A stretch of DNA of 57,081 bases from Patescibacteria group bacterium (GTDB lineage Bacteria > Patescibacteriota > Patescibacteriia > UBA2591 > JAQUPP01). The DNA lies in assembly GCA_028717225.1 (NCBI GenBank), contig JAQUOF010000003.1, positions 1 to 57,081 of the forward strand, given 5' to 3'. The position numbers and the translations under genes are program-made. A model generated the notes under the pieces. That model was not told the origin of the DNA. It worked only from the letters and a program-made list of their open reading frames with translations, and did no database searches. Below are positions 6,822-53,010 of the stretch, one piece after another (position 1 is the stretch's first letter; each line of letters begins with the position of its first letter).

Positions 6822-8394
6822 AAGATTTTTTAAATTGGAGTCAACCGTTGCCGGCGGAGCAATAATTATTGCTCTTTTTTCTATTTTAAGTCGCTTGCTC
6901 GGGCTTTTGAGAGATCGTTTGTTAAGCGCCAATTTCGGCGCCGGTAAAGTTTTGGATGCTTATTACGCCGCTTTCAGATTGCCGGATTTGGTTTTCAATA
7001 CTTTGGTTTTAGGGGCGCTTTCAGTCGCTTTTATTCCGGTTTTTTTGGAATATTTCGCCAAAGACAAAAAAGAGGCTTTTAAAGTTGCCAATTCTTTATT
7101 AAATGTTTTATTGACAGTCATTTTATTTTTAGTGGTTGTCTTTTTTATTTTTGCTCCAGTTTTGACTAAATTAATGGTGCCGGGGTTTGATTTGGAAACC
7201 AGATTGCTGACCATTAAATTGACGAGAATAATGTTGATCAGTATTTTGTTATTTACAATCAGCAATATCGCCGGCAGTATTTTAAATTCTTTTAAAAAAT
7301 GGCTGGCCTACAGTTTGGCATCCATAATGTATAATTTGGGAATTATTTTCGGCATCGTATTTTTGGTGAAAAAAATGGGATTTACCGGCTTGGCTTGGGG
7401 TGTGGTTTTGGGCGCGTTTTTGCATCTTTTAGTTCAAATTCCAAGTCTTTTAAAAACCGGTTATCGTCCGCAGTTTATTTTCAATTGGCGCCATCCGGCT
7501 GTTAAAAAAATCAGTGTTTTAATGCTGCCTCGCTGTTTCGCTTTGGGAATCAGGCAATTCAATTTGATCGCCACCACTTTTATCGCTTCATCTATTGCCG
7601 TGGGCGCAGTGGCTATTTATAATTTGGCTTTTAATTTGGTCAGTTTTCCGATCGGTATTTTCGGCGTTTCCTTGGCCTTGGCTGTTTTTCCGGTTTTGAG
7701 TCAAAGCTTTATTGACGGAGATAAAGTTCTTTTTAATCATCAAATTTCCAAAACAATTCGACGGATTTTATATTTGATAATTCCCGCCACGGCCTTGTTT
7801 ATTATTTTAAAAACTCAAATAGTCAGATTGATTTTAGGAACCGGCGCTTTTTCTCAGAGAGATATTATTTTAACCGCTCAGGCTTTGGCCTGGTTCTCCA
7901 TTTCTTTATTCTCAGAAAGCTTGATTCCGGTTTTTGCCAGAGCTTTTTACGCTGTTCAGGACACGAAAACTCCGACGATTATCGCCGCGATCAGTTTTGC
8001 AATAAATATCATCGGTTGCGTGATTTTGGGACATTTAATGAAAATCAGCGGTTTGGCTTTGGCTTTTTCAATTTCTTCTGTTATAAATATCGGCTTGCTT
8101 TATTTTTATCTTAATAAAAAAATTGGAGATTTTGAAAAGAAAAAAATATTTTTATCATTTGGACGAATTGTTTTTGTTTCTTTGGCCATGGCGAGCTTTA
8201 TCCAAATCATAAATCATAAAATGGCATTATTGTTGAATCTGCAAACTTTTGCCGGCGTTTTAATTCAAACTATCTGCGCTTTGATTGTCGGAATTTTATT
8301 TTATTTGATTATTACTTTTGTTCTGCAATTTCCGGAAGTGGAAATTATCCATCAATTTATTGTTAGAAAATTTAAATTTCACCCCAAACATTAA
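6814..8394 (+). CDS. murJ: Lipid II flippase MurJ/MviN
   Basis: 526 aa polytopic protein. N-terminal LSRLLGLLRDRLLSANFGAG..DAYYAAFRLPD is typical of MurJ. Confidence 0.85.
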   Translation: MLKRFFKLESTVAGGAIIIALFSILSRLLGLLRDRLLSANFGAGKVLDAYYAAFRLPDLVFNTLVLGALSVAFIPVFLEYFAKDKKEAFKVANSLLNVLLTVILFLVVVFFIFAPVLTKLMVPGFDLETRLLTIKLTRIMLISILLFTISNIAGSILNSFKKWLAYSLASIMYNLGIIFGIVFLVKKMGFTGLAWGVVLGAFLHLLVQIPSLLKTGYRPQFIFNWRHPAVKKISVLMLPRCFALGIRQFNLIATTFIASSIAVGAVAIYNLAFNLVSFPIGIFGVSLALAVFPVLSQSFIDGDKVLFNHQISKTIRRILYLIIPATALFIILKTQIVRLILGTGAFSQRDIILTAQALAWFSISLFSESLIPVFARAFYAVQDTKTPTIIAAISFAINIIGCVILGHLMKISGLALAFSISSVINIGLLYFYLNKKIGDFEKKKIFLSFGRIVFVSLAMASFIQIINHKMALLLNLQTFAGVLIQTICALIVGILFYLIITFVLQFPEVEIIHQFIVRKFKFHPKH

Positions 8395-8395
8395 T

Positions 8396-10213
8396 ATGGA
8401 AACAAAACGGGTGCGCAATTTTTGCATTATCAGCCACGTAGATCACGGCAAATCAACTTTAGCCGATCGTTTTTTAGAATTCACAAATACGATTACCAAA
8501 GACAAAATGAAGCCCCAATATTTGGATCTGATGCCGCTGGAAAGAGAGCGCGGCATAACCATTAAGCTTCAGCCCGTTACCATGAAATACTCTTATCAAG
8601 GTGAAGTTTATACTTTTAATTTGATTGATACGCCGGGTCATGTTGATTTTTCCTATGAAGTTTCGCGTTCTTTGGCCGCAGTTGAAGGAGCAATTTTGTT
8701 GGTTGATATAAGCCAGGGGATTCAGGCTCAAACTTTGGCAAATCTTCATTTGGCCAAAAAACAAGGATTAACCATTATTCCGGTTGTTAATAAAATTGAC
8801 TTGCCCAATTTTGATTTGGAAGCCGTAAAAGAGGAATTGGCCAATCTTTTGAATATTGATAAATCTGAAATTATTTGTATTTCCGCAAAAAAAGGAATTG
8901 GTATAGAAAAAGTTTTGGAAGCGGTGATAAAAAAAGTTCCTGAACCAAAAGACGAATCAAAACAATCTTTTCAAGCTCTTATTTTTGATTCTCATTTTGA
9001 CGAATATAAGGGAGTGCTTTTGCATGTCAGAGTGTTTAAGGGAGTTATCAAAATAGATAATAGAATTAAATTATTGGGCAGCGGAGTAATTTTCCCGACT
9101 TTGGAAGTTGGGATTTTCAGTCCGGGTTTAAAAAAACAAGACAAACTTGAAGCAGGCGATATTGGTTACATAGTGACCGGTCTTAAAGAAATTGAGAAAT
9201 GTCGAGTCGGCGATACGGCCGCTTGTTTTCCGTCTCAGATAACCGCGCTTGAAGGTTATAAAGAACCGCAGCCAATGGTTTTTGCCAGTATTTATCCGAA
9301 AGAAGGAACTAAAAAAGAATTATTGCGCCAAGCTTTAAGCAAATTAAAATTAAATGACGCCAGTTTGACTTTTGAGCCAATTGGTTCAGTGGCTGATCAA
9401 TCTGTTTTTGGCATGGGATTCAGAGTCGGTTTTCTCGGACTCTTGCATTTGGATATTGTCAAAGAAAGATTAAAAAGAGAATATGGTCTTGATTTGGTTA
9501 TCACTTCGCCCAGCGTATCTTATAATATAAAATTCAAAACAGGCAAGAGCAAACTTATTTATTCGCCGACAGAATTTCCGGATCCGAGTCAGGTGGACAA
9601 AATTGAAGAACCATGGGTAAAAATTGATATTGTAACGCCAATCACATATATCGGTTCAATTATGGAATTGTTAAGAGGATATTTGGGAGTTTTCTTGTCA
9701 TTGGAATATATCTCCGGCGAAAAATACGGAAAATTTCAAAGAGCTGTTCTTCACTATGAAATGCCATTAGCCTTGCTTCTGGTTGATTTTTACGACAAAC
9801 TTAAAAGTATAACCAGTGGTTATACTTCTTACAGTTATGATTTTATGGGTTATCGGCCGACTGACGTGGTTAAATTGGATATATTGGTTGCCGGCGACGT
9901 AATAGAGCAACTATCCAGTATTGTTTACAGAGATTGGGCGCTTCGTTCGGGCCGCAGAATTGTCGGATCTTTGAAAGAAATTTTACCGCGCCAGCTTTTT
10001 GAGGTTAAACTTCAAGCCGCGGTTGGCGGAAAAATTTTAGCCTCGGAAAAAATATCACCTCTTCGCAAAGACGTGACGGCAAAATTATACGGAGGCGACG
10101 TGACCAGAAAAAATAAATTATTGGATAAACAAAAAAAGGGAAAACAAAAAATGGCGCGTTTAGGCAAGGTGGATATTCCACCGGAAGCATATTTGGCTAT
10201 CATAAAAAAATAA
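8396..10213 (+). CDS. lepA: Elongation factor 4 (LepA)
   Basis: IRNFCIISHVDHGKSTLADR G1 motif, DTPGHVDF, NKIDL, and LepA-specific C-terminal domain. Start placed at ATG 8396, immediately after the murJ stop. Confidence 0.95.
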   Translation: METKRVRNFCIISHVDHGKSTLADRFLEFTNTITKDKMKPQYLDLMPLERERGITIKLQPVTMKYSYQGEVYTFNLIDTPGHVDFSYEVSRSLAAVEGAILLVDISQGIQAQTLANLHLAKKQGLTIIPVVNKIDLPNFDLEAVKEELANLLNIDKSEIICISAKKGIGIEKVLEAVIKKVPEPKDESKQSFQALIFDSHFDEYKGVLLHVRVFKGVIKIDNRIKLLGSGVIFPTLEVGIFSPGLKKQDKLEAGDIGYIVTGLKEIEKCRVGDTAACFPSQITALEGYKEPQPMVFASIYPKEGTKKELLRQALSKLKLNDASLTFEPIGSVADQSVFGMGFRVGFLGLLHLDIVKERLKREYGLDLVITSPSVSYNIKFKTGKSKLIYSPTEFPDPSQVDKIEEPWVKIDIVTPITYIGSIMELLRGYLGVFLSLEYISGEKYGKFQRAVLHYEMPLALLLVDFYDKLKSITSGYTSYSYDFMGYRPTDVVKLDILVAGDVIEQLSSIVYRDWALRSGRRIVGSLKEILPRQLFEVKLQAAVGGKILASEKISPLRKDVTAKLYGGDVTRKNKLLDKQKKGKQKMARLGKVDIPPEAYLAIIKK

Positions 10214-22341: not shown

Positions 22342-22372
22342 ATGCTTTAAATTAGCGTTTTAGGGGAGGGGG

Positions 22373-22401
22373 TTGACAAAAACCAAAAAATGTGCTTAAA
22401 T
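22373..22401 (+). promoter_or_regulatory. Promoter GGGGTTGACA-N17-TTAAAT
   Basis: Read directly. The G-run before the -35 is as in the 49.5-52.7 kb elements, but no left partner was found. Confidence 0.5.
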
Positions 22402-48856: not shown

Positions 48857-48898
48857 TAGTACACTTATTTTACACGGCCGTGTAAAATAAGTGTACTA
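48857..48898. repeat. 42-bp perfect palindrome TAGTACACTTATTTTACACGG|CCGTGTAAAATAAGTGTACTA
   Basis: Read directly. Centre lies about 52 bp upstream of the -35 at 48929. Related copy at 56806-56845. Confidence 0.9.
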
Positions 48899-49517: not shown

Positions 49518-49677
49518 TTGACCCTCTCATAAGGAAAACTATTGTCTTCCTTAGAAATTACAGCTTAATAGGCATAAAGTTAAAAATAAGCATCTAGATA
49601 AGATAAAATCAGTGTATATATAAAAAAATGAAAGATAGTATGCCTTTTATGGTTTTCCACATGTGAGGGGGTTGACA
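49518..49677 (+). repeat. Structured spacer element E1 (TTGACCC...GGGGGTTGACA), 160 bp
   Basis: Subterminal inverted repeat CCCTCTCATAAGGAAAAC / GTTTTCCACATGTGAGGGGG. The 3' TTGACA plus N16 plus TATTAT forms the promoter of the next ORF. Confidence 0.7.
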
Positions 49678-49790
49678 AAATTCAAAAATATGCTATTATA
49701 TATAACACAATATAGTTCTTTATAAATAGCCGAAGCGAATCCGGGCTAAAAAGAAAGGATTCGCAAAACTAATAAGACGGGAGGTCTTAA

Positions 49791-50204
49791 ATGAATAAAT
49801 TTCAAAAAATTCTGTTAATTGTTGTTGTGTTTACTGCCATAGGAGCTTATGCTTCTACTACAAATTTGGAAAACAAATTTACACCGGTTGTAAGCAAGGT
49901 AACAACAATGCCAGAAGTATTGCCGATGAGTATAGAGATAAGTAATAATGATTTATCTACCGTTGCTCAGCCCGTTGAATTAGTTTCGCAGGTTTTAGTA
50001 AAACCGGTAAAAAAAGAGATTGGAAAAATCGAATTCAATATTCCGAAGGTGAATATAGTAAAACCGGTCAATTCTGTTGAGAACTCTTCAACTTTATTTT
50101 TGCATAAGGTTAAAATTGAAGATAGGAACTCCTTAGTTTTTCAAGCGAGAGACACACTAAGAAGACAACAGGAAGAGCTAAATATCCAAATAGCGAGTAT
50201 ATAA
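49791..50204 (+). CDS. Hypothetical secreted/anchored protein (137 aa)
   Basis: N-terminal hydrophobic segment, SD GGGAGG. Confidence 0.6.
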   Translation: MNKFQKILLIVVVFTAIGAYASTTNLENKFTPVVSKVTTMPEVLPMSIEISNNDLSTVAQPVELVSQVLVKPVKKEIGKIEFNIPKVNIVKPVNSVENSSTLFLHKVKIEDRNSLVFQARDTLRRQQEELNIQIASI

Positions 50205-50211
50205 CATATCA

Positions 50212-50253
50212 GGGTGCAGAACTAGTTTGACTAGTCTGCACCCAATTTTTTTT
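50212..50253 (+). terminator. Intrinsic terminator
   Basis: GGGTGCAGAACTAGT / ACTAGTCTGCACCC plus T8. Confidence 0.85.
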
Positions 50254-50254
50254 C

Positions 50255-50397
50255 TTGACCCCACCACCTAGAAATTATATTTTTTAATGCGAAATATAAA
50301 TTAAATTTATGATTTATTAGATCTTTTTATTAAAAAAATATAATTTAATTAAAAACATAAAATTGAGCATTATAATTTCTGGGTGGTGGGGTTGACA
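50255..50397 (+). repeat. Structured spacer element E2 (TTGACCCC...GGGGTTGACA), 143 bp
   Basis: Terminal inverted repeat CCCCACCACCTAGAAATTATA / TATAATTTCTGGGTGGTGGGG. The interior is the reverse complement of E3. The 3' TTGACA plus N16 plus TATAAT forms a promoter. Confidence 0.8.
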
Positions 50398-50481
50398 GAT
50401 TTTATTTTTTTGTTATAATAAAAAAAGATTTAAGGATATAACCTTAAAAAGAGCCCGCCTATCGGCAGGCAGGGAGGAAAG

Positions 50482-50886
50482 ATGAGAAATTTTTTGAAGT
50501 TGGGAATGTCAGTTGCCTTGGGATTTATTCTCTGCAATATTTTTCTGGCCAATCCGGTCAGAGCAGAATTATCGGTTCCTGATGTAATGACCGTAACACA
50601 ATCAAAAGACCTTGATTGTGTTACAAATCCAAGTTATATCATCAATGCTGATTCGGTAATCTTGGATTTAGTGGAATCAAAAATAATTATTGAATGGGGT
50701 TCTTTAATAGTTATTGATTCTACGGGGCAAAAAACTGTGGAAATACAAATGAAACGAGGAATTGTTTTTTTAGATAGTACGTGGAATACTATCTATCTGG
50801 TAAAAAATTTGAATGATTTTGTTATATTTGCTGCGAATAATGGTAAATACAATAAAATTAAGGAGGGGAAAATAGAGAAATATTAA
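50482..50886 (+). CDS. Hypothetical secreted protein (134 aa)
   Basis: Signal peptide MRNFLKLGMSVALGFILCNIFLANPVRA, SD GGGAGG. Confidence 0.6.
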   Translation: MRNFLKLGMSVALGFILCNIFLANPVRAELSVPDVMTVTQSKDLDCVTNPSYIINADSVILDLVESKIIIEWGSLIVIDSTGQKTVEIQMKRGIVFLDSTWNTIYLVKNLNDFVIFAANNGKYNKIKEGKIEKY

Positions 50887-50892
50887 TAAAAA

Positions 50893-50928
50893 TTAGGCCG
50901 AGATGAACTCTCGGTCTAATCATTTTTT
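50893..50928 (+). terminator. Intrinsic terminator
   Basis: TTAGGCCGAGA-TGAAC-TCTCGGTCTAA plus T-run. Confidence 0.8.
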
Positions 50929-51073
50929 TTGACCCCACCACCAAGAAATTATAATGCTCAATTTTATGTTTTTAGTTAAATTATATTTTTTTAATAAAAA
51001 ATTCTAATAAATCATAAATTCAATTTTATACTTCGCATTAAAAAAATATAATTTCTAGGTGGTGGGGTGGACA
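50929..51073 (+). repeat. Structured spacer element E3 (TTGACCCC...GGGGTGGACA), 145 bp, inverted copy of E2
   Basis: The interior reverse complement aligns with E2 along its full length, with about 8 differences by eye. The 3' TGGACA plus N17 plus TATACT forms a leaderless promoter. Confidence 0.8.
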
Positions 51074-51102
51074 TAATTTTTAAAAAATATTATACTGATA
51101 AT

Positions 51103-51501
51103 ATGAAAATTGCGATTTGTGGCAGCATTGCCTTCTCAAAAGAAATATTGGAAACTCAAAAAATCCTTGAAGCAAAAGGATTTGTTGTGATTGTGCCCAA
51201 GGATATTTTAAAATACGCCGAAGGCGAAGTTAGTCATGAAGATAAATGGGCGAAAATTGAAGGAGATGTTTTTAAAGAATATTTTGAAGAAATAAAAAAA
51301 TGCGATGCAGTATTGGTTATCAATAAAGATAAAAATAACATTGAAAATTATATCGGAGGCAACAGCTTGATAGAGATGGCTTTTGCGCATATTTTAAATA
51401 AAAAAATATTTTTGTTAAATCCGATTCCTAAAATTAATTATACTGACGAAATAGAGGCAATGAAACCGATTATTCTCAATGGCGATTTGGATAAAATTTA
51501 A
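51103..51501 (+). CDS. Nucleoside 2-deoxyribosyltransferase-like (flavodoxin-fold) protein
   Basis: MKIAICGSIAF...CDAVLVIN...GGNSLIEMAFA pattern recalled from the NDT-like/DUF4406 family. ATG lies 6 nt after the -10. Confidence 0.4.
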   Translation: MKIAICGSIAFSKEILETQKILEAKGFVVIVPKDILKYAEGEVSHEDKWAKIEGDVFKEYFEEIKKCDAVLVINKDKNNIENYIGGNSLIEMAFAHILNKKIFLLNPIPKINYTDEIEAMKPIILNGDLDKI

Positions 51502-51508
51502 TAAGGGG

Positions 51509-51629
51509 TTGACCCTATTAGAGATTCATAATAGATTTTATTTTTTTATAAAGATTATAAGGCAAAGCCACTTCGTTCTTGATTTAATTTAATAGATAGC
51601 CCTACTTTAAATCTTTAACGGGGTTGACA
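51509..51629 (+). repeat. Structured spacer element E4 (GGGGTTGACCC...GGGGTTGACA), 121 bp
   Basis: Inverted repeat CCCTATTAGAGATT / AAATCTTTAACGGGG. The 3' TTGACA plus N17 plus TTAAAT forms a promoter. Confidence 0.65.
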
Positions 51630-51699
51630 AAAATAATTTTTTCTGATTAAATTAAAATAAGATATTAATATAACTTAGGTTCTTTGAAAGGAGGCTTTG

Positions 51700-52317
51700 A
51701 TGAAAAAAAATTTTGAGCCCAAATATGTCTATCTGCCCGTAGCATGCGCAATTATGGGTAGAAATATTTTTGGCATAGAAGAAGCAAGAAAGCATCTTGG
51801 CATTTACCCAACTGAAGAACAGTTTGGGATTTTGTCTCAAATACCATACTCCGAAACAGTGTTAAGGAATCTTAAAGATAAGTATGTTTTGGTTGTTAAT
51901 TATGGCGAACCAATCCTTACTCAAAAAGCCATGAAGCCAAGTTTTTTTTATGGCAGTAAAAATTCAGAGTATAATAACGAAGAATTTGCCAAAAAGGCGG
52001 GGAAGATAGAGTGGAATTTAATAAGGAAAACAGAAATTCCGGGCTCTGTCAATAAATCTTATCGCGATCAGATGTTATTACTTCGGAAAAATGAATCTGT
52101 ACCAACAGCACAGCAACTCGTGAATGCCATGGTTGCTTTTAGTCTGTTAGGGGAGCGGCTATTCAGGCATTGGTTTGTGAGGGTCTATGATATAGACGGA
52201 TACGGCAATTGTATTTATTTGGGCAACCCCAAGTCAACAAACATCCGGATATATAAATATAATAAGGATGTTCGTTTGGAGAGAGTGGGATTGTCCAGCC
52301 AGATAATACCAATGTAA
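51700..52317 (+). CDS. Hypothetical protein (205 aa)
   Basis: SD AAGGAGG 5 nt upstream of ATG 51700. No family recognised. Confidence 0.6.
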   Translation: MKKNFEPKYVYLPVACAIMGRNIFGIEEARKHLGIYPTEEQFGILSQIPYSETVLRNLKDKYVLVVNYGEPILTQKAMKPSFFYGSKNSEYNNEEFAKKAGKIEWNLIRKTEIPGSVNKSYRDQMLLLRKNESVPTAQQLVNAMVAFSLLGERLFRHWFVRVYDIDGYGNCIYLGNPKSTNIRIYKYNKDVRLERVGLSSQIIPM

Positions 52318-52325
52318 TTTAATTC

Positions 52326-52363
52326 AGAGTCCTTGTTTTATTGTAAGCAAGGACTCTTTTTTT
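52326..52363 (+). terminator. Intrinsic terminator
   Basis: AGAGTCCTTG-loop-CAAGGACTCT plus T-run. Confidence 0.85.
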
Positions 52364-52388
52364 ATTCACAATAACTTTTCAACTCCAG

Positions 52389-52417
52389 TTGACAAGATTT
52401 TAAAAATATATTATATT
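52389..52417 (+). promoter_or_regulatory. Promoter TTGACA-N17-TATATT
   Basis: Read directly. Drives the 8-codon ORF unit. Confidence 0.55.
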
Positions 52418-52440
52418 TTATATAATTAAAGGAGGTGATC

Positions 52441-52467
52441 ATGCTTCTAAAAGGAATTCCGCCTTGA
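52441..52467 (+). CDS. 8-codon mini-ORF (MLLKGIPP) with perfect SD; micropeptide, leader or decayed cassette
   Basis: AAAGGAGGTGATC-ATG, stop after 8 codons, terminator 40 nt downstream. Confidence 0.25.
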   Translation: MLLKGIPP

Positions 52468-52507
52468 TGATAATTAATCACTTTAAACCACTTATTTAGG
52501 GGTTAGG

Positions 52508-52546
52508 GGTTGGGAGAAGATCGAAATTCTCCCAACCTGTTTTATT
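52508..52546 (+). terminator. Intrinsic terminator
   Basis: GGTTGGGAGAA-loop-TTCTCCCAACC plus TGTTTTATTT. Confidence 0.8.
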
Positions 52547-52576
52547 TCATTGGAATTTATTTATACACCGACGGAA

Positions 52577-52701
52577 TTGACCCCCACACCATAACTCAAC
52601 GTAAGGCTTTTTTAATATGAAGAGATAAGAGCGAAGCGGCTTCCGCCTTACGACTTTTATAATATGTAAATCAAGTGCTAAGTTTGGTGTGGGGGTTGAC
52701 A
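52577..52701 (+). repeat. Structured spacer element E5 (TTGACCCCC...GGGGGTTGACA), 125 bp
   Basis: Inverted repeat CCCCCACACCATAACT / AGTTTGGTGTGGGGG, inner stem CGTAAGGC/GCCTTACG. The 3' TTGACA plus N16 plus TATAAT forms a promoter. Confidence 0.75.
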
Positions 52702-52773
52702 AGGATTATAGATAAGTTATAATATGATTTGTATGACATTTCATATAAATCATATTATTTAATATAAAAATTT

Positions 52774-53010
52774 ATGAAAAAAGATTTTTTTGAAAGCATA
52801 GTTTGTTTTGACACTGCCACGGTCGGCGAGCGGGGACAAATAGTAGTTCCGGCCGAAATTCGCAAAAAATTAAAAATAAAAAGCGGCGATAAGATGGTGG
52901 CTTTTTTAACTCCGGCAGAAACAATAATTCTTATCCCGAGCAATAAATTCGGGAAGATTGTTTCCGTATTCCATAAAAAACTTGATAAATTAACAGAATT
53001 AATTAAATAA
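52774..53010 (+). CDS. AbrB/SpoVT-family DNA-binding protein
   Basis: GERGQIVVPAEIRKKLKIKSGDKMVAF swapped-hairpin motif. Confidence 0.75.
   Translation: MKKDFFESIVCFDTATVGERGQIVVPAEIRKKLKIKSGDKMVAFLTPAETIILIPSNKFGKIVSVFHKKLDKLTELIK

Follow-up and report, generated by a model that had tools for sequence, protein, structure and literature searches.

Probable miniature inverted-repeat transposable elements at consecutive promoter -35 boxes of a Patescibacteria gene island

The locus and its five elements

The stretch of DNA considered here (contig JAQUOF010000003.1 of assembly GCA_028717225.1, positions 1 to 57,081; hereafter the window, 57,081 nucleotides in full) has the gene content of a chromosomal Patescibacteria segment, with SecDF, LepA, ParAB, TopA, MurC/G and DnaK, and the closest relatives of its proteins come from named Patescibacteria; look-ups for exact copies of the proteins of its own genes returned no record. 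Towards its end lies an accessory island of small orphan genes, separated by five intergenic elements, E1 to E5, which an earlier note on the same DNA had described as the boundaries of a cassette-like array. Inspection of the sequence bore out the description of the elements themselves: all five were found where that note had placed them, with the ends it gave and lengths of 121-160 bp including the flanks. [quoted passage not shown]

All five share the layout TTGA-CCC...GGG-T(T/G)GACA, followed by a -10 box. The core of E1 occupies 49522-49671, between TTGA at 49518-49521 and TTGA at 49672-49675, and has terminal repeats of the CCCCCTCAC class. E2 (core 50259-50391; TTGA at 50255-50258 and 50392-50395) has 21-bp terminal inverted repeats, CCCCACCACCTAGAAATTATA, and E3 (50933-51067; TTGA at 50929-50932, TGGA at 51068-51071) is the same element, inverted. 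E4 (51513-51623; TTGA at 51509-51512 and 51624-51627) is a decayed member of the CCCCGTTAGAGATT subfamily, and E5 (52581-52695; TTGA at 52577-52580 and 52696-52699) belongs to the CCCCCACACCA(T)AAC terminal-repeat class; no strand is assigned to any of the cores. The flanks are therefore TTGA/TTGA in four elements of five and TTGA/TGGA in E3, the right-hand TGGACA of which is common to the window and to two sibling lineages, L001 and L004, introduced below. The cores, 111-150 bp long, have AT-rich interiors with no credible coding open reading frame (ORF); the sole ORF of at least 40 amino acids (aa) that overlaps an element is a 51-aa frame with a TTG start on the reverse strand, 52547-52702, which runs across E5. 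An 8-bp terminal consensus, CCCYNNYA / TRNNRGGG, is common to E1-E5, which means that the element ends are conserved in sequence and not in structure alone.

These similarities stand out statistically. The motif GGGGTTGACA, with at most one mismatch, has 10 matches in the window against 1.74 expected, a count reached in none of 100 shuffles, and the joint pattern TTGACCCYNNYA-N95-125-TRNNRGGGTTGACA has three matches against 0 in 100 shuffles; TTGACCC by itself is not significantly enriched (9 matches against 5.5 expected). When the 57 kb were scanned for TTGA-flanked CCC...GGG inverted repeats, only these five sites were recovered.

The pair E2/E3 separates element from target. The earlier note had called them copies, which they are, albeit in inverted orientation: they are reverse complements of each other over 95 nt at 95% and 28 nt at 100%. 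Their homology ends exactly at CCCC/GGGG, save for a single A/T that any TTGA repeat contributes, and both have TTGA as their left flank and T(T/G)GACA as their right. Since TTGA is thus kept outside the repeats of oppositely oriented copies, it is flanking target DNA rather than part of the element. The strand-specific pairing of the two terminal TTGAs, previously read as a signature, is an automatic outcome of a 4-bp direct repeat and carries no independent signal.

The inverted repeat that had been ascribed to every element translates into significant single-strand folding in E2 (z -6.1), E3 (z -6.3) and E5 (z -4.0), whereas E1 (z -1.3) and E4 (z -1.0) fold no better than shuffles, and the terminal repeat of E4 is not present in its minimum-energy fold. 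As further observations on E5, its interior at 52600-52653 holds an inner hairpin, CGTAAGGC...GCCTTACG, which differs in L004 by a single change (C to T), one that still permits a G-U pair, on the plus strand only, and a terminator-like hairpin lies within the element on the minus strand, at 52647-52630.

A dispersed and mobile family

A scan of metagenomes for CCCYNNYA / TRNNRGGG ends with TTGA / TTGACA flanks returned at least 120 loci. The family contigs come from groundwater, aquifer and sediment samples, and two of the host contigs are assigned to the Patescibacteria group and to candidate division Kazan. Although the pattern fixes just 8 positions per arm, the terminal inverted repeats reach 12 bp or more in 113 of the 120 matches listed (median 15). 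The general form is CCC(C)...(G)GGG with terminal inverted repeats of 12-22 bp in the classes CCCCGTTAGARR, CCCCCACACC / CCCCACCACC and CCCCCTCAC. The terminal-repeat classes are few: among the matches listed CCCCGTTAGA(A/G)(A/G) is dominant, the others being CCCCCACACC, CCCCCTCACC and CCCTGTTAAA. All the window elements find a place in this scheme, with CCCCGTTAGAAG corresponding to E4 (CCCCGTTAGAGATT), CCCCCACACC / CCCCACCACC to E5 and E2/E3, and CCCCCTCAC to E1. E1, E2/E3 and E5 resemble other copies by terminal-repeat class only; E4 is 71-73% identical along its whole length to an element in contig L057, the flanks of which are unrelated. Copies at non-homologous loci are further seen in contig L067, which has three, and in subfamily clusters that extend across contigs. 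Within subfamilies, copies face either way with respect to the downstream promoter (3:3, 3:2 and 3:1). A TAnnnT motif follows TTGACA at 16-18 nt in 102 of the 120 matches listed, against a background of 5.8%, which indicates that these TTGACA sites are real promoters.

The fetched loci contain 54 family elements that were not picked by their flank pattern, and these bear directly on target duplication. Identical 4-bp flanks of varied sequence border 32 of the 54: TTGA/TCAA in 12, TGAA/TTCA in 8, CATA in 3, TAAA in 3, and TCCA, CCCG, TCTG, CTGG, CCTG and CAAA in single cases. The preference for TTGA is marked, 12 of the 32 duplications as against about 1.4% of tetramers. In L067, one copy (2429-2561, duplication TCTG) is nested inside another (duplication TGAA); the inner copy is 94% identical to a third copy 6 kb off with different flanks, and the outer element is found in uninterrupted form on five other contigs. 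Finally, contigs L075 and L078, which are 96% identical across the site, form an occupied/empty pair: L078 reads GTTG-TCAA-CAAAAG, and L075 (653-762) has TCAA, a 110-bp element, CCCCACACC...GGTGCGGGG, and TCAA again. The opposite strand shows that the insertion hit a TTGACA hexamer and duplicated its TTGA.

The duplications, the nested copy and the occupied/empty pair are the standard proofs of a transposable element that makes a 4-bp duplication. Taken together, the family displays features by which a MITE is recognized, namely terminal inverted repeats, a duplication of fixed length, small non-coding elements, copies at non-homologous loci, and polymorphism between occupied and empty sites. 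The earlier note had raised MITEs with a TTGA duplication in -35 boxes as its alternative, and it is this alternative that the flanks of the family, the nested copy and the L075/L078 pair support.

Tandem arrays of two to four elements that share a 4-bp spacer occur in L017, L021, L041 and L106, with GGGG-TTGA-CCCC junctions; such copies might stem either from repeated insertion into the regenerated target or from unequal crossing-over. We also observed two tandem copies in L011 where the homologous L031 has one, and GGGG-TTGA-CCCC junctions at 51505-51515 of the window, beside E4, and at about 9541-9552 of L004, beside E5. Separately, many of the non-TTGA duplications (TGAA/TTCA, TATG) overlap start-codon contexts of the ATGAA(A) type (L067 8574, L073 6467, L090 7814, L042 334, L119 5178 and L122 3120). 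The preferred target may have TGA at its core, or else insertion may also be tolerated at gene starts.

Promoters and terminators around the elements

On the plus strand, a promoter follows every element. ORF 49791-50204 is served by TTGACA-16-TATTAT at 49672-49699, the -35 box of which holds the right-hand copy of the E1 duplication. The promoter of ORF 50482-50886 (50392-50419; spacer 16, TATAAT), a 12/12 match to consensus, is rebuilt by the E2 duplication; the ORF, a 134-aa secreted-type orphan, lies between the inverted pair E2/E3. To the right of E3, TGGACA-17-TATACT (51068-51096) precedes ORF 51103-51501, and to the right of E4, TTGACA-18-TAAATT (51624-51653) precedes ORF 51700-52317, a 205-aa orphan. 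The promoter to the right of E5 (52696-52723; spacer 16, TATAAT) serves an AbrB/MazE-like gene (52774-53010) and the efflux operon downstream of it. The -10 box had been placed 16-17 bp from the -35 box throughout; this geometry holds, with spacers of 16-18. The further notion that each element supplies the -35 box of the next gene has the relationship the wrong way round: the -35 box of the host promoter is the target, and the duplication rebuilds it. Terminator-like hairpins lie upstream of E1, E3 and E5, with another before E2 at 50212-50243; as had been noted, there is none before E4. We considered the left TTGACC as a second promoter facing into the element and rejected it, the -10 matches being weak and inconsistent, at most 9/12, with none for E5.

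Variation among sibling genomes

Two sibling lineages were identified through homologues of the HlyD-like protein: L001 (fragments L002 and L003 included; 98% protein identity, on a 256-kb contig) and L004 (with L005; 91% protein identity, on a 137-kb contig). Among these and the window, the island is a mosaic in which segments of 55% to 100% identity lie side by side. Gene units do vary between the siblings, as a cassette array would lead one to expect, but the breakpoints do not fall at the TTGA termini. The 137-aa secreted ORF (window 49769-50207 region) is 97% identical to the L004 allele (8289-8702), and L001 (6687-7162) carries a very divergent 148-aa allele in its place, while the terminator and E2 that flank it are 96-100% identical in all three. 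The breakpoints of the swap are in the 5' untranslated region (UTR) and just past the stop codon, away from the element ends. The pattern resembles an exchange of alleles, by homologous recombination across the conserved flanks, or else diversifying selection on a surface protein.

In L004 the 134-aa unit is missing. Its site holds a single 58-nt hairpin flanked by TTGA and TGGACA, made of 39 nt of the left part of E2 and 19 nt of the right part of E3 joined at a TATAA microhomology, an E2/E3 hybrid that fits a slippage deletion between inverted copies rather than the excision of a cassette. L004 also lacks E4 together with the 205-aa unit. Only two homologues of the 134-aa ORF were found. As a side observation, one of them lies on a 2222-bp contig (ENA ERZ1426843), at 67% identity and directly after a 143-aa ORF, with 125 bp between the two; the 137-aa unit and a full-length element are apparently absent there, giving a third gene order for the island.

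The elements have drifted as well. The left TTGA of E1 is not kept in the siblings (TTGG in L004, TTACAT in L001), and its right GGGGGTTGACA is invariant across the window and siblings; the left arm reads CCCTCTCATAAGG in the window against CCCCCTCACAAGG in the siblings, with the right arm unchanged and no compensating change. Likewise, the left end of E4 is CCCTATTAGAGATT in the window against the intact consensus CCCCGTTAGAGATT in L001, again with no compensating change. The compensatory stem changes that the earlier note had proposed to look for are therefore lacking in E1 and E4, and its picture of variable stems held together by a conserved structure gives way to one of shared end sequences with arms that decay uncompensated. 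Drift of this kind, together with breakpoints away from the ends, does not fit a site maintained for its structure. E5 is 100% identical to L001 and 97.5% identical to L004 (3 differences in 119 nt).

The search for a transposase

Repeat pairs no more than 4 kb apart enclose host genes, namely a polysaccharide-flippase-like membrane protein (recognized by eye), a Fae/OMP-decarboxylase fusion and an Ig-domain protein. The window ORFs, scanned with Pfam or read by eye, include no Y1 transposase, and no recombinase was found in the sibling flanks. Viral contigs scanned with the E2 repeat and with the CCCCGTTAGAA pair gave no matches, and Rfam searches at gathering and permissive thresholds returned tRNAs and noise only.

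Proposed mechanism and points against it

Briefly, we envisage the following course of events. A transposase encoded elsewhere would bind the terminal repeats and, presumably by a DDE-type cut-and-paste chemistry, cut the target with a 4-bp stagger, with TTGA being preferred. Upon insertion at the TTGA of a TTGACA hexamer, the duplication would leave one TTGA at the left of the element, whereas the right-hand TTGA and the original CA would rebuild TTGACA with its former spacing to the -10 box. The promoter would survive and the element would sit harmlessly between the upstream terminator and the promoter; the -35 box would not have been brought by the element, the host promoter being the source of the target. 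It is this position between a terminator and a rebuilt promoter that would make the copies look like promoter-bearing boundary elements. Five such insertions would have occurred in consecutive promoters of the accessory island, where the copies, as repeats, would then promote rearrangements such as the loss of the E2-E3 ORF in a sibling. The bias towards -35 boxes may reflect either a preference of the enzyme or the persistence of those insertions that do no harm, in a genome where scarcely any other TTGA is neutral.

Several observations weigh against this account. The five copies are confined to 3.2 kb, and the remaining 54 kb hold none despite about 20 other consensus-type promoter sites; with such sites taken as approximately 21, five are occupied, all in one run of six. 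This clustering is unexplained by random transposition alone and may mean that insertions are tolerated in an accessory island made up of orphan genes. For none of the five copies in the window do the siblings offer a matching empty site. The metagenome sample was chosen by its TTGA...TTGACA flanks, so the true fraction of copies in -35 boxes is not derivable from it. Sought as an exact match in 185,579 species-representative genomes, the E2/E3 terminal repeat occurs at a single CPR site, the parent contig of L004, and is not multicopy there; two further matches, in unrelated phyla (Krumholzibacteriia, Limnohabitans), look like chance. No integrase, transposase or recombinase was found in the window (20 unassigned ORFs scanned with Pfam, the remaining translations read by eye), no autonomous copy lies between repeat pairs in the approximately 790 kb of fetched loci, and a tblastn search of the window and loci with the ISEcp1 (IS1380) transposase gave no match with E < 0.3. 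Lastly, between the window and L004, E5 (97.5%) and E1 (93%) are more conserved than the neighbouring DNA (55-90%), which could signify an acquired function or recent exchange.

Alternative explanations

The interpretation favoured in the earlier note, that the elements are structure-recognized recombination sites akin to integron attC, delimiting mobile single-gene cassettes, or else a new cassette-boundary or insulator element, starts from genuine resemblances. The elements are imperfect palindromes of attC-like size between single-gene units, and the gene content of the island varies, with L004 lacking the 134-aa and 205-aa units and the ENA contig having a 143-aa ORF directly followed by the 134-aa ORF. 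Against it, the RYYYAAC/GTTRRRY cores are absent, and so, by Pfam scan or by eye, is an integrase or recombinase among the window ORFs, both points that the earlier note had itself made and that hold. Moreover, each gene unit carries a promoter of its own; the sequence of the ends is conserved throughout the family while the flanks vary as target duplications do; the allele swap at ORF 49791-50204 has its breakpoints in the 5' UTR and immediately past the stop codon; those of the loss of the 134-aa ORF fall within E2 and E3, at an ATATAA microhomology; and in E1 and E4 the stems have decayed without compensation. We hence regard recombination sites of this type as very improbable here. A composite transposon, in which E2, ORF 50482-50886 and E3 moved together so that an inverted pair of MITEs mobilized a promoter-gene-terminator unit and such pairs made true mobile cassettes, would account for a complete unit bracketed by inverted, about 95% identical copies with outer flanks TTGA and TGGA, for its being missing in L004, and for the different gene order around its sole other homologue. 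We nevertheless judge it quite unlikely, as those outer flanks differ, as the L004 junction, with its 39 nt of E2 and 19 nt of E3 at TATAA, points to a deletion rather than a clean empty site, and as no second site was seen at which these MITEs flank the ORF.

Two further proposals accept the origin of the elements as MITEs and add a function to it. Some copies, E5 and E1 in particular, might have been co-opted by the host as an insulator upstream of a promoter, a barrier to read-through, an RNA-processing hairpin or a small RNA. E5 has but 3 differences in 119 nt relative to L004, as against 89.7% identity in the adjacent promoter/UTR, 89.7% in the HlyD-like gene and 55% in the upstream spacer; the interior of E1 is about 95-100% conserved when the end of the neighbouring ORF is at 65%; the sole inner-stem change in E5, from C to T, still allows a G-U pair on the plus strand; and E5 lies in a possible read-through path from a leader-peptide unit to the efflux operon. 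Yet in an island that is a recombination mosaic (55 to 100%) high identity may mean recent exchange and not constraint, only three lineages are compared, Rfam has no match, copies of the family stand in both orientations relative to promoters, and E1 and E4 fold no better than shuffles, so that co-option appears unlikely to us. The bolder proposal is that the predicted transposase of the family actively homes to sigma-70 -35 hexamers (TTGA|CA), thereby preserving the promoter, and that paired and tandem copies (E2/E3, the GGGG-TTGA-CCCC junctions) drive the gain, loss and allele exchange of promoter-gene-terminator units. We put it forward tentatively, as a possibility with the balance tilted against it. 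If true, streamlined CPR genomes would obtain a cassette-like accessory island without integron machinery, and these elements would be the first described members of a CPR-wide transposon family.

Comparison with known systems

Having favoured MITE insertion over these alternatives, we may ask which known elements come closest. Correia elements (CREE/NEMIS) of Neisseria and RUP of Streptococcus pneumoniae are bacterial MITEs, and promoter-adjacent bacterial MITEs such as the Correia elements appear to be the nearest analogues. Like the present family, they are non-coding elements of about 100-160 bp with terminal inverted repeats and a short duplication of fixed length and preferred sequence; they are intergenic, lie beside promoters and terminators, form hairpins, occur as nested and tandem copies, and fall into many subfamilies. 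The present elements differ in their 4-bp TTGA-preferring duplication, in place of TA, in their CCCC...GGGG ends, in their CPR/Patescibacteria hosts, and in that insertion rebuilds an existing -35 box rather than bringing promoter parts.

Another set of likenesses concerns the possible source of the transposase. Elements of the IS1380 family have CC(C) termini and duplications of 4-5 bp, those of ISEcp1 being 5 bp, and piggyBac makes TTAA duplications and has CCCTAGAAAGATA ends, with a TAGAA-like stretch in common with CCCCGTTAGAAG. The E1-E5 family resembles IS1380/piggyBac in its CC(C) termini and 4-bp duplication; unlike in piggyBac, its preferred target is TTGA, not TTAA. The ends of ISEcp1, as inspected, are CCTAGATTCTACGT...ACGTGGAATTTAGG, the right end being also written AATTTAGG. 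A relationship between piggyBac and IS1380 has been stated (PMC5718144). Neither beside nor between any of the repeat pairs examined did an IS1380-type transposase come to light, and the IS1380/piggyBac assignment is accordingly only a lead.

The remaining comparisons are with systems whose defining features the elements lack. They share with integron attC sites the imperfect palindromes of similar size between single genes and an array with strain-to-strain gene differences, but there are no R''/R' core sites, the ends being TTGA-CCCYNNYA and TRNNRGGG-TTGACA, and no IntI was found. The units here have consensus promoters, whereas integron cassettes are mostly without; the end sequences are conserved, target duplications are present, and the breakpoints of variation lie away from the element ends. 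The palindrome-associated elements derived from IS200/IS605 (PATEs) and the REP/REPIN-RAYT systems are likewise short, hairpin-forming intergenic repeats with a conserved tetranucleotide beside one end. However, PATEs and REPINs have neither terminal inverted repeats nor a target duplication and insert in a strand-specific, one-sided manner 3' of a fixed tetra- or pentanucleotide, in contrast to the two-sided, identical 4-bp flanks of varied sequence and the both orientations of the E1-E5 family. Integron attC, IS200/IS605-type and REPIN identities were each rejected, as each fails in defining features tested here.

Full-text searching of a limited literature collection yielded no description of these elements or of MITEs in CPR/Patescibacteria. 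The family hence seems to be undescribed, though it is a known kind of element rather than a new recombination system. A diverse and abundant MITE family, with at least 120 loci, points to ongoing transposon activity in CPR genomes, which are usually called tiny and streamlined. Landing in a -35 box that the duplication rebuilds would be a simple way to persist in genomes with almost no spare intergenic DNA. In practical terms, these hairpins can be confused with attC sites, riboswitch-like RNAs or regulatory palindromes. Besides probably causing breaks in metagenome assemblies, they supply repeats that reshape accessory gene islands.

Other features of the island and window

Immediately upstream of E5, at 52389-52538, lies a stand-alone unit with a consensus promoter, a Shine-Dalgarno site and a strong terminator, which encodes an 8-codon ORF (52441-52467, MLLKGIPP*) and has a counterpart in L001 at 9414. 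In L004 (9403) the unit encodes another peptide with the same C-terminus, MSHYRGIPP*, along with a second mini-ORF, MKAMA*. The unit precedes the AbrB/MazE-like gene and a HlyD/ABC/MacB-type efflux operon, and the conserved GIPP-stop suggests a ribosome-stalling leader that governs read-through into that operon.

A 42-nt near-perfect palindrome, TAGTACACTTATTTTACACGGCCGTGTAAAATAAGTGTACTA, is present at 48857-48898 of the window and at 5784-5825 of L001, and recurs at a non-homologous intergenic site after a MacB-like gene (L001 13781-13824, L004 14185-14227); this palindrome represents a short-repeat or terminator family of its own, with no relation to the MITEs. Finally, at 22346-22378 the window contains GGGGAGGGGG-TTGACA upstream of a promoter, without a left partner, which may be a lone right end left over from an E1-class element or else a chance occurrence.

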